Below, one piece after another: positions 14,653-17,311 of a stretch of DNA of 17,311 nucleotides. The position numbers and the translations under genes were made by a program. The number at the start of each line of letters is the position of its first letter. The stretch's first letter is position 1. This DNA comes from Promethearchaeia archaeon (GTDB lineage Archaea; Asgardarchaeota; Lokiarchaeia; Sigyniarchaeales; SOKP01). The notes under the pieces were generated by a model. It did not search any database, was not told the DNA's origin, and saw only the letters and a list, made by a program, of their open reading frames with translations. Location: contig JAWOFX010000081.1 of assembly GCA_046497275.1 (NCBI GenBank), positions 1 to 17,311 of the forward strand, written 5' to 3'.

Positions 14653-15984
14653 TTAATGCTCTCCATCAATTTTAATAATTAATCTTTTTAAATCTTGTAT
14701 TTTTGGTTTTTTGGCATTTAAACCAACTCTCTTCCTTGCTGACCTTGAAAATTTTGCAACTGTTCCCATCCTCTTAAAAGAATCAAACTCTTTTTCGAAA
14801 CCTTTAACGGTTATATCTAATTCTTTTGCTAAGTTTCTAAGAGTTGTAAAAACATCCACTAAACCTATCCTCATAGGACATAATTCATAGCAAACATAAC
14901 AGTCAAGGCATAACCAGATAGAGGGATCTCTTACAATTTTATTCAGTTGTCCCTTTAAGATCTTTCCGATTATTTCTTTCGGATTAAAGGTTTGTGGCAT
15001 ATATTTTGCGACAGGGCAATCACTATTGCACGCTCCACAAAAATAACATTCTTTCAAAAATTCTAAATCAAAGTATTTCTCTATTTCTCTATTCCTTTGG
15101 TAAATCATATCTATTTTTCTAAAAATACTCTCAACCGGCGTTCTATGATATTTAGTAATAAATTCTTTAATATCTATACCTAATGCAATACAGAGTAATT
15201 CTGAATAATAAAAAACAGGTATATCAAATTCATAGTCTAGTTTTTTAAGTTCTCTTTGTAAATGATCAAATTGGATAAAACATTGAGGGCAGCCCACTAC
15301 TATTGCATCTGCACCAACGTCTTTAATATTTTCTAATTTTGAATGAACCATTTCTAATGCGGTATCGGGATTACCAGCTCTTTCTAGACTTCCTCCACAG
15401 CATTCCATTTTTTGAATATAATCTATACTTTTTGCTCCAAGATCTTCAATTAATTCATCAAAAATATGGGGTTTCATAGGATCATCCATTTGAATTTTAT
15501 TACTAGGTCTTAAGAAATGACATCCATAATGAACTGCTATCTTTAACCCTAATAAGGGATATTTTATTTTTTGTTTTATTTTTTCCCTATGATATTTATG
15601 AAAGAATTCCACAAGATGAAAAATATCGGATTTTCCCTCACAATGATATTCAATCTTCTCTAAATAATGATTAATTTTATCCCGTAAATGATGATTTGAT
15701 TTAATTACACTTCTAATTCCCTTTAAGGTTTCAAAACATCCATTACACGGAGTTAATATATCTAGTGATATCTGTTCCGCAATTGATAAATTCCTTGCGG
15801 CTGTTATATTATAGATAAATTCATTAGAATTTTTAATTCCATTAGGTTCTGGACAACAAGAAAACTTATTTGATTCAATATATTCAATATCTAAAAATTC
15901 AAGGATATTTTTTACTGAAACTTCTATAAATGGCAATCTATAACTAATCATACAGCCAGGAAATAATATAACCTCTTTTTGAAT
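14653..15984 (-). CDS. hdrB: HdrB-HdrC fusion protein (two CCG domains plus C-terminal 2x[4Fe-4S]), heterodisulfide-reductase-like; probable ATT start
   Basis: CCG1: FPGC (upstream of the track's ATG 15951), SCCPEP, PCNGC. CCG2: HYGCH, ECCGG, GCPQC. HdrC-like: CYFCGACNSDCP and IWLCLDCYVCYELCP. The frame is open up to TAA 15985-15987. The start position is less certain than the product call. Confidence 0.9.
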   Translation of the reverse strand: MQKEVILFPGCMISYRLPFIEVSVKNILEFLDIEYIESNKFSCCPEPNGIKNSNEFIYNITAARNLSIAEQISLDILTPCNGCFETLKGIRSVIKSNHHLRDKINHYLEKIEYHCEGKSDIFHLVEFFHKYHREKIKQKIKYPLLGLKIAVHYGCHFLRPSNKIQMDDPMKPHIFDELIEDLGAKSIDYIQKMECCGGSLERAGNPDTALEMVHSKLENIKDVGADAIVVGCPQCFIQFDHLQRELKKLDYEFDIPVFYYSELLCIALGIDIKEFITKYHRTPVESIFRKIDMIYQRNREIEKYFDLEFLKECYFCGACNSDCPVAKYMPQTFNPKEIIGKILKGQLNKIVRDPSIWLCLDCYVCYELCPMRIGLVDVFTTLRNLAKELDITVKGFEKEFDSFKRMGTVAKFSRSARKRVGLNAKKPKIQDLKRLIIKIDGEH

Positions 15985-15992
15985 TTAAAATA

Positions 15993-15998
15993 ACCTCC
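15993..15998 (-). promoter_or_regulatory. Shine-Dalgarno site GGAGGT for the hdrBC gene
   Basis: mRNA reads TTGGAGGT-TATTTTAA-ATT CAA AAA, an 8-nt spacer to ATT 15984. Confidence 0.6.
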
Positions 15999-16070
15999 AA
16001 TTTTTTTTATATTTCAACTCCTAAATTTATATTTCTTAGATAAATATATCCAAATAAAAATATAAACTTT

Positions 16071-16097: not shown

Positions 16098-16586
16098 TTA
16101 AGTATACATTAATAAATCATAAAATATGAGATAGTTATATTAGTTATATTTTTGGAAGTGGTATTTTAATTTACAAATAAATGTCAATTTTTGAATGGAT
16201 TGGATTGAGTTATATAATGATTTGGATCAACTTTAATGCATTATATATCTTCTTAAAGAAATATTGATATGAAGTGTTAAATTAATCTATCAAATTTAAG
16301 ATAATAATTTTTTAAAATCTTTCTGACAACAAGCTTGATAGTTTCAATGAAATTGAAATTATCTTTTTTTTATTTCTATCAAATCCTTAAATGAATAGGG
16401 GGAATAAATTTTTAAAAATTTGAAATTTGCTTCAATTCTTTAAAAAAAAGTAAACTTTGAGATCTTATTATGATAAGATATTAAACTAACTAATTTTAAT
16501 CTAAAATCCCTCATTCTTTTTTTGAATCATAAGTATTTATAAATTTAGAGATTGATTATTGATTATAAAAATTATATGTGATATTT

Positions 16587-17311
16587 TTGACTCAAAATAG
16601 TAATATAAATGATTACACTGAGTTTGATAAAACTCAACTTTATGAGGATCTTCGAGTGTTTTTAAGCCCTGAAAATAGTTTAAAGCTGCCAAAAAGTGAA
16701 ACCACATCGAAACTATTAACTAACATGTATACACCTACTGAAGCTTTTATTATCGTGAAAGGATTTAAAAAGCCTTTAGGACCAACATTAGGTTGGAGGA
16801 TTAGGAGAAAAACAAAAATTCCTAAAGAGAAATTAAAAGAAATTTTGGACGATATGATTTATAAGGGAAAACTGATTAAAAAGGGGCCATTTTATGTTAT
16901 TTTCCCCTATATACCTGGAGGATTTGAATTTTATTTTACAACAAATAGAGATGATCCCGAAAGAATGAAAAAAGCCGCAGAAGCTCATGATGCATTATTT
17001 TATGAAGGGTATCCCTTAGGTTTGAGCAAATTGGAGCCAACTGTATATAGAGTTATTCCAACCATAGAACCTACCAAGAGAACTTATGAAATTAATAAAT
17101 CTATGGAAATACAACATGAGATCCTTACTTATGAGCTCATGGAAGATTATTTGGCGGAAAAAGATGTATTTGCTGTCGTACCTTGTAGTTGTAGAACTGC
17201 TGCAGCTTTAGCGGGGAATCCATGTAAGAGAACTGACGAAAACTTTTGTATAACTGCAGGAGCTTTAGCTGAGAATGCTATTGAATCTGGGGTTGGAAGA
17301 GAAGTCTCATT
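16587..17311 (+). CDS. Fe-S ('4Fe-4S binding protein')-family protein, N-terminal part, truncated by the window edge
   Basis: Not in the ORF track because it has no stop in the window. Open frame from TTG 16587 (or GTG 16578): ...LYEDLRVFL...YTPTEAFII...LDDMIYKG...PYIPGGFEFYF...YRVIP...VPCSCR...GNPCKRTDENFCI...GVGREVS. This layout usually precedes a C-terminal ferredoxin domain, which is not visible here. Confidence 0.75.
   Translation, partial: MTQNSNINDYTEFDKTQLYEDLRVFLSPENSLKLPKSETTSKLLTNMYTPTEAFIIVKGFKKPLGPTLGWRIRRKTKIPKEKLKEILDDMIYKGKLIKKGPFYVIFPYIPGGFEFYFTTNRDDPERMKKAAEAHDALFYEGYPLGLSKLEPTVYRVIPTIEPTKRTYEINKSMEIQHEILTYELMEDYLAEKDVFAVVPCSCRTAAALAGNPCKRTDENFCITAGALAENAIESGVGREVS

Follow-up and report, generated by a model that had tools for sequence, protein, structure and literature searches.

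Comparative analysis of a 17,311-base contig (JAWOFX010000081.1) from an uncultured Loki-type Asgard archaeon (genome of 3.85 Mb, 30% G+C, 188 contigs) indicates that an HdrBC-like gene on its minus strand is very probably translated from an ATT codon at position 15984. The whole contig is referred to here as the window, and all positions without a contig prefix are those of this stretch. Reading along the minus strand, an in-frame TAA (15987–15985) directly precedes the ATT (15984–15982), which is followed by ten sense codons (CAA AAA GAG GTT ATA TTA TTT CCT GGC TGT, 15981–15952) encoding QKEVILFPGC and then by an ATG (15951–15949), the first canonical start codon. No ATG, GTG, or TTG is present in this frame between the TAA and the ATG. 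If the ATT is used, the coding sequence (14653–15984) comprises 443 codons and a stop and encodes an HdrB-like region with two CCG domains joined to an HdrC-like 2x[4Fe-4S] domain. If the ATG is used, the product has 432 residues and lacks the Cys encoded at 15952–15954, which is the first Cys of the N-terminal CCG motif; the ATG most likely encodes an internal Met12.

The ATT is preceded, at a distance of 8 nt, by the Shine-Dalgarno (SD) sequence GGAGGT (15998–15993), all six bases of which pair perfectly with the 3' end of the 16S rRNA of this genome (...GGATCACCTCCT). Measured from the start of the SD 5-mer, the distance to the ATT is 14 nt, and the peak for first ATGs in this genome is at 12–14 nt. 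ATT 15984 is the sole near-cognate codon at SD spacing and the only plausible start of the conserved N-terminus described below. An ATT that follows a stop codon is not rare in itself, as 7% of the in-frame codons ahead of first canonical starts are ATT; this one is raised above chance by the essential Cys upstream of the ATG, the ATT column among the orthologs, and the start-like SD spacing. RNA structure around the start was unremarkable, with a z-score of 0.01 for an 81-nt fold compared with shuffled sequences. The original prediction, made from the letters of this stretch, had described both the frame without a canonical start and the perfect GGAGGT 8 nt before the ATT, and both were confirmed in the sequence. 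Its placement of the start at ATT 15984 is strongly supported by the ortholog alignment, the signs of translation at the N-terminus, the SD motif, and the alignment with HdrB.

Conserved N-terminus of the HdrBC-like protein

The 443-residue product matches the Pfam CCG model (PF02754) in two stretches (E 5.6e-30) and Fer4_8, Fer4_9, and Fer4_17 at residues 310–373. Among solved structures, HdrB chains are matched at E values of 1e-55 to 3e-63, and the matches to HdrC chains are near 1e-15. In HdrB, the five Cys residues of a CCG motif act as the ligands of each noncubane cluster (PMC10861901). Residues 4–293 align with residues 2–293 of the solved HdrB 8rvu_b (E 3e-63), and Cys11, which lies immediately before the position of ATG 15951, aligns with Cys9 of that protein. 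Residues Cys11, 43, 44, 80, and 83 fit the pattern C-X31-CC-X35-C-X2-C only if the extension from the ATT is translated. The claim of the original prediction that a gene call at ATG 15951 drops an essential ligand is therefore borne out, as Cys11 is the first of the five Cys residues in this motif. The HdrB paralogs of the same genome begin M-E-Y-x-L-F-x-G-C, with Met 8–10 residues before the corresponding Cys, and the ATT occupies the position where these paralogs carry their Met. The tryptic peptide EVILFPGCMISYR would be expected only if translation starts upstream of Met12.

All ten Cys residues of the two five-Cys CCG domains are present, as are both CxxCxxCxxxCP motifs of the HdrC-type ferredoxin domain (2x[4Fe-4S]), and the frame is intact over its 443 codons. 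The same two CCG domains, ten Cys residues, and ferredoxin-like 2x[4Fe-4S] domain are found in methanogen HdrB and HdrC (PDB 8rvu, 5odc, 7bkb), but the protein studied here carries both parts as a single fused chain, B followed by C. A heterodisulfide reductase proper would be marked by association with HdrA and an electron-input module and by a heterodisulfide (CoM-S-S-CoB) substrate. Association with HdrA was not found: in contrast to the methanogen hdr loci, the gene precedes split glutamate-synthase-like genes and not hdrA, and canonical hdrA/C/B sets are located elsewhere in the genome.

Conservation of the ATT codon among orthologs

Orthologs were collected by whole-genome searches in 40 relatives and by a scan of GTDB species genomes, which resulted in 38 distinct orthologous loci at 41–76% protein identity, plus one copy at 99%. 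The metagenome-assembled genomes (MAGs) that contain them are labelled Promethearchaeota, Lokiarchaeota, and related names. At the column ten codons before the Cys (-10), ATT is present in 26 of the 38 loci, ATA in two, and ATG in one, with an ATT displaced by one codon in two more. A near-cognate codon is thus conserved among the orthologs, as in genes of the infC/pcnB type, and the outcome in which all relatives carry ATG, which the original prediction had considered, was not seen. In 18 of the 38 loci no canonical start codon occurs from the nearest upstream stop to the Cys. Five of these (L053, L059, L061, L067, and L069) have none for a further 11–46 codons, so that a canonical start there would also lose the CC pair of the motif. 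Where a canonical start is present, it is mostly located directly before the ATT or within one or two codons of it, for example as ATG ATT in L019, L051, and L068 and as GTG ATT in L070.

The columns after the ATT hold Q-Q-E-(I/V)-(V/I)-L-F-P-G-C while third bases vary: Phe is encoded by TTT in 26 loci and TTC in 12, Pro by CCA (16), CCT (10), CCG (5), or CCC (3), Gly by GGA (21), GGT (10), GGC (4), or GGG (3), and Cys by TGT (25) or TGC (13). The two columns upstream of the ATT (-11 and -12) are unconserved and include stop codons, and the nearest in-frame stop of the orthologs lies at a variable position, from one to about 20 codons upstream. Because the residues are kept while third bases vary, and because conservation stops at the ATT, the peptide appears to be translated and selected from the ATT onward. 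Two other arrangements were tried and rejected. Read-through or a longer upstream open reading frame (ORF) does not fit the AT-rich upstream stretch, where the sequence is unconserved, stop positions vary, and no conserved start is present. A conserved upstream ORF ending at the ATT was also dropped: this genome (G000) has a TTG, nine codons, and a TAA there, and no equivalent was found in any ortholog.

This pattern bears directly on two other candidate start codons. ATG 15951 is the first canonical start, and orthologs have been deposited in public records from their first canonical codon; its use would yield the 432-residue protein without the first Cys and would leave the upstream codons as untranslated leader. 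We consider this very improbable, as the ten upstream codons are conserved as protein with synonymous changes, the Cys among them completes the five-Cys motif, some orthologs have no canonical start for up to 46 codons, and no SD precedes ATG 15951. The ATG column is also not a conserved start, because it holds a Val, Thr, or Phe codon in 13 of the 38 orthologs. The second candidate is ATA 15969, five codons before the Cys, which is likewise near-cognate; the Prokaryotic Genome Annotation Pipeline (PGAP) has itself chosen differing near-cognates in orthologs (-6 ATT, -12 ATA, -24 ATT). Initiation there has equally little in its favor, since the ATA is 23 nt from the SD, its column consists mostly of Val codons in the orthologs, and residues 4–6, which lie upstream of it, still align with the solved HdrB.

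In the protein tree, a clade of 31 rows has ATT throughout its deep branches, and the start codons observed can be accounted for by about six state changes. Because of this distribution, the ATT is, as judged from the alignments, old and maintained and not a private mutation, being common to most orthologs and to at least ten genera of the family. Given a single MAG as source and a codon one base away from ATG, one might suspect faulty sequencing or assembly, or a mutation private to this genome that inactivated the gene and left a pseudogene. This is almost certainly not the case: the same codon is found at 26 orthologous loci, the frame is unbroken over its 443 codons, and an independently assembled contig from the bin TEKIR_8, which has 19 mismatches to the window over 3.8 kb (99.48% identity), carries the same ATT, which makes an assembly artefact unlikely. 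Two copies of the gene are present in the TEKIR_8 bin (L009/L038 and L039; contigs SDNL01000101.1 and SDNL01000106.1), one 99% identical to that of the window with an ATT start and the other with an ATG start and 76% identity. Either the two are paralogs or the bin mixes two strains.

Shine-Dalgarno association and the nature of the transcript

Among the orthologs with only ATT or ATA at the start, 23 of 24 have a complement to the 16S rRNA tail of at least 4 nt located 6–11 nt before the start, with mean predicted duplex energies of -7 kcal/mol for ATT orthologs and -11 kcal/mol for ATA orthologs. Such a motif is present in four of the 14 orthologs with a canonical start (mean -3.6 kcal/mol). 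The motif thus accompanies the near-cognate codons at a fixed distance.

Several points weigh against an ATT start. The support for it is entirely comparative. The association between SD motifs and start codons is a pattern of raw counts over related, non-independent loci, which provide only two well-supported independent contrasts. At the start column, ATT makes up 26 of 28 Ile codons (93%) compared with 56% pooled over 17 conserved Ile columns, but one ordinary conserved Ile column reaches 88% ATT, so this third-base bias is suggestive only. The initiation factor aIF1 of S. solfataricus rejects an AUU model mRNA in vitro (PMC4705826), which implies that archaeal AUU initiation needs compensation or a more tolerant factor. 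Finally, a proximal TATA-like box 28 nt upstream could put the transcript start at the ATT itself and leave the SD outside the mRNA.

The last point concerns the kind of transcript on which the AUU would be read. Two TATA-like boxes, both candidate promoter elements, are located upstream on the minus strand: a distal box AAATATAAAT (16034–16025) and a proximal box AAATATAAAA (16014–16005), 20 nt apart. If the proximal box sets the transcript, the mRNA would be leaderless or nearly so, translation would still begin at AUU 15984, and the GGAGGT would be promoter-proximal DNA. The center of this box is about 26 nt before the ATT, which is close to the usual distance between TATA box and start in archaea, and several orthologs have a AATATAAC box 32–35 nt before the ATT or ATG. 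We nonetheless regard a leaderless transcript as unlikely. SD-like motifs at a fixed distance are present in nearly all non-canonical orthologs and in few ATG-started ones, the genome-wide ATT enrichment described below is specific to positions behind SD motifs, and leaderless initiation is strongly dependent on the start codon (PMC4705826). The distal box is just as compatible with a leader of about 17 nt that includes the SD, and the SD association favors such a leader over leaderless mRNA.

In several orthologs, a similar pair of AATATAAC boxes precedes the ATT by about 52 and 33 nt. Paired AAATATAA(A/C) boxes spaced 19–20 nt apart are located upstream of the gene in the window (16005–16034, minus strand) and in L013, L041, L042, L044, and L047, and a tandem AATATAACT repeat is present about 140 nt upstream in the window (16120–16150, minus strand). 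The box pair together with the AATATAACT repeat may constitute a promoter plus a regulator site. The AATATAAC-N-AATATAA pair was dropped as a genome-wide regulator site, as it had two other matches in the genome and the single motif was not over-represented.

With an SD-containing leader, initiation at ATT 15984 could proceed as follows. The GGAGGU of a short 5' leader would pair with the 3' end of the 16S rRNA, and this pairing would bring the AUU, which follows after 8 nt, into the P site. The initiator Met-tRNA would then read the AUU with a third-base mismatch. In the resulting 443-residue product, the N-terminal noncubane [4Fe-4S] site would receive its first strand and its first Cys ligand from residues 4–11. 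Over the history of the gene, the AUU would have been replaced or preceded by ATG, GTG, or TTG about six times, and the SD is mostly missing from ATG-started orthologs. The initiation event, the residue inserted, and any effect on expression are what we infer from the sequence, its conservation, the SD association, and the homology of the N-terminus.

Public annotation of the gene and its orthologs

The NCBI product for this contig has 443 residues and begins M-Q-K-E-V-I-L-F-P-G-C, and the ATT start is therefore already annotated. An exact look-up of the 432-residue ATG-started product of the window returned no record, because NCBI carries the 443-residue form. The 99%-identical TEKIR_8 gene and many orthologs have been deposited from the first canonical codon, at lengths of 432, 433, 430, 420, 416, and 390 residues (e.g. 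MBD3196820.1, MBY9006646.1, MBN1214560.1, and NHJ22362.1), and public ortholog entries are short of 11 to 57 N-terminal residues. The expectation of the original prediction that a standard gene call would delete the ligand thus holds for these truncated orthologs but not for the contig itself, whose NCBI product starts at the ATT. Recent NCBI entries for orthologs use four near-cognate positions (-10 ATT, -6 ATT, -12 ATA, and -24 ATT). The near-identical L013 (MFX0188934.1) and L041 (MFW9898752.1) were given different starts, the -6 ATT and the -12 ATA, respectively, and neither was given the conserved -10 ATT. The alignments point to the -10 ATT as the common start of the orthologs. What is new in the present analysis is the depth of conservation, the link to the SD, and the inconsistent annotation of orthologs, as the start on this contig was already public.

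Candidate near-cognate starts across the genome

SD-led near-cognate codons were counted in 2825 stop-to-stop ORFs of at least 150 codons. The codons tested were in-frame and at least eight codons ahead of the first ATG, GTG, or TTG, and were scored for an SD 5-mer 11–15 nt upstream. This search identified such a motif for 29 of 843 ATT codons (9.1 expected, p = 9e-8), a 3-fold enrichment, for five of 51 ACG codons (0.6 expected, p = 2e-4), and for three of 44 CTG codons (0.5 expected, p = 0.012). The A/T-rich control codons AAT, TTT, TAT, and TTA were at or below the SD background of 1.08%, and ATA and ATC showed no significant SD enrichment in this strict test of the 2825 ORFs. In addition, 75 ORFs have at least 40 codons before the first canonical start, where 15 would be expected from the geometric decay of short distances.

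In at least seven genes, a Pfam profile starts upstream of the first canonical codon. An ATT is the proposed start for a thiolase (C20:10126, plus strand; profile from residue 13, first canonical codon 49), a GDPD protein (C69:5354, minus strand; residue 6, codon 55), an ABC ATPase (C136:23802, minus strand; residue 20, codon 35), a short-chain dehydrogenase (SDR; C156:40283, plus strand; residue 20, codon 132), and an Arf-like GTPase whose P-loop lies upstream of first canonical codon 28 (C180:28799, plus strand). An ACG is proposed for V-type ATP synthase subunit D (ATP-synt_D; C139:11172, plus strand; residue 12, codon 16) and an ATA for RadA (HHH_5 domain; C13:21897, minus strand; residue 2, codon 28). 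An OFOR beta subunit (C98:8271, plus strand), a second GTPase (C47:29034, minus strand), and CorA (C127:20501, minus strand) also have a conserved N-terminus before the first ATG, GTG, or TTG. All ten of these genes have an SD before a near-cognate codon, and many unrelated genes of this genome would accordingly need an SD-led ATT, ATA, ACG, or CTG. No tRNA with a CAT anticodon (tRNA-Met) was among the 13–19 tRNAs that aragorn found.

Two further genes differ in the apparent age of their ATT. An HdrA paralog adjoining an hdrCB set (C100:48733, minus strand; L071:4–1686) has AGGAGGTGA, 6 nt, and then ATT, and its first canonical start, 28 codons on, would delete the N-terminal VCHCG Cys cluster. 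Its eight orthologs in other genera have ATG or TTG, in one case ATG ATT, so the ATT of this paralog is recent and private to this genome, and not every ATT start here is old. In the gene for aIF1 (SUI1; C118:66899–67234, plus strand; L091:1411–1746), the first canonical start codon is a TTG within the zinc knuckle, and zinc-knuckle Cys residues are encoded upstream of it. In 13 of 15 genomes of the family, an ATT is located seven codons before the first of these Cys residues and is preceded by a conserved GGTTGTGA-like motif in which a TGA is in frame; in other families of the order the start position is ATG, TTG, or ATA. By analogy with infC and eIF1, an AUU start in aIF1 would allow a possible feedback on initiation.

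Near-cognate codons (AUU, ACG, CUG, and some AUA) therefore seem to serve as starts throughout this genome and the family, in aIF1 as well, and the ATT of the HdrBC-like gene looks like a single example of this practice. The original prediction had instead regarded it as a rare, gene-specific device for translational down-tuning, and the 3-fold enrichment and the many unrelated genes that need near-cognates do not support that reading. A gene-specific throttle of the infC and pcnB kind, pcnB being a further gene with an AUU start, would hold the amount of the HdrBC-like subunit below that of its partners. It could draw on the long divergence over which the ATT has been kept and on the weakness of AUU as a start in bacteria and yeast (PMC4705826). 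We find it rather doubtful: membership in so broad a habit weakens it, near-cognate starts are common here across unrelated functions, RadA and the ATP synthase subunit among them, six lineages moved to canonical starts without other visible change, and a strong SD may offset a weak AUU codon. A broader model, which we put forward tentatively, is that the family has re-tuned its start selection. AUU, with ACG, CUG, and some AUA, would then routinely initiate a few percent of genes in an SD-dependent manner and would have been retained over long periods of evolution. The proofreading factor aIF1, itself AUU-initiated throughout the family, would exert an infC/eIF1-like feedback that sets how permissive initiation is.

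Comparison with known systems

The E. coli gene for IF3, infC, has an AUU start with translational autocontrol (Butler et al. 1987, as summarized in PMC4705826). The HdrBC-like gene resembles it in being intact and conserved with no usable start other than an SD-led AUU, and in that the near-cognate codon is conserved among relatives. It differs in that the machinery is archaeal (aIF1/aIF2, with no IF3 or fMet), in that the gene encodes a redox enzyme and not an initiation factor, and in that it is not isolated, with dozens of genes in the genome alike. Within this genome, infC has a closer counterpart in aIF1, with its ATT conserved across the family.

A literature search for near-cognate starts as a trait of Asgard archaea returned only a single remark on AtubA. 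That case comes from the same lineage and is similar in kind, as the first beta strand is missing from the deposited protein and is restored by a start at an upstream ATT, which lies at a plausible distance from a ribosome-binding site. The AtubA remark was made for a single gene during cloning, without an ortholog survey, whereas the present case covers 38 loci and a genome-wide enrichment. In H. volcanii, ribosome profiling placed about 30% of putative alternative initiation sites at near-cognate codons, which the authors set aside as possible false positives (PMC7261190). In this archaeon, too, there are signs that near-cognates of AUG are used for initiation, but the sites there are alternative or extra ones, while the main ORF of the present gene has no start other than the near-cognate.

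Genomic context

Three co-oriented genes are located downstream of the HdrBC-like gene on the minus strand: a GATase_2 gene (14628–13432), a gene for a Fer4 and Glu_synthase (FMN domain) protein (13427–11907), and a GXGXG gene (11929–11063), with GTG, TTG, and GTG, respectively, as their first in-frame start codons. Among these three, a strong SD (AGGAGGT, 7 nt) is found only at TTG 13427. None of the four genes of the operon has ATG as its first in-frame start, and the fourth has an ATG three codons further in. The HdrBC-like module may feed electrons to an archaeal glutamate synthase. A divergent ORF on the plus strand (16578–17309) runs off the end of the window and has Cys-rich motifs near its end; it had no Pfam match at E <= 0.01.

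Implications

The choice of start decides whether the protein model includes the first ligand of a catalytic noncubane iron-sulfur cluster, and truncated entries would mislead structure prediction, cloning, and metabolic inference. Gene callers limited to ATG, GTG, and TTG would under-call such genomes, and the near-cognate calls of PGAP are inconsistent between near-identical orthologs. The wider near-cognate phenomenon is the more interesting part of these findings than the single HdrBC-like gene. The 38 loci suggest that AUU starts in Loki-type Asgard archaea are old, maintained, and paired with a ribosome-binding site. Because aIF1 of Sulfolobus rejects AUU in vitro (PMC4705826), this lineage would offer a natural system for the study of start-codon stringency in initiation of the archaeal/eukaryotic type.

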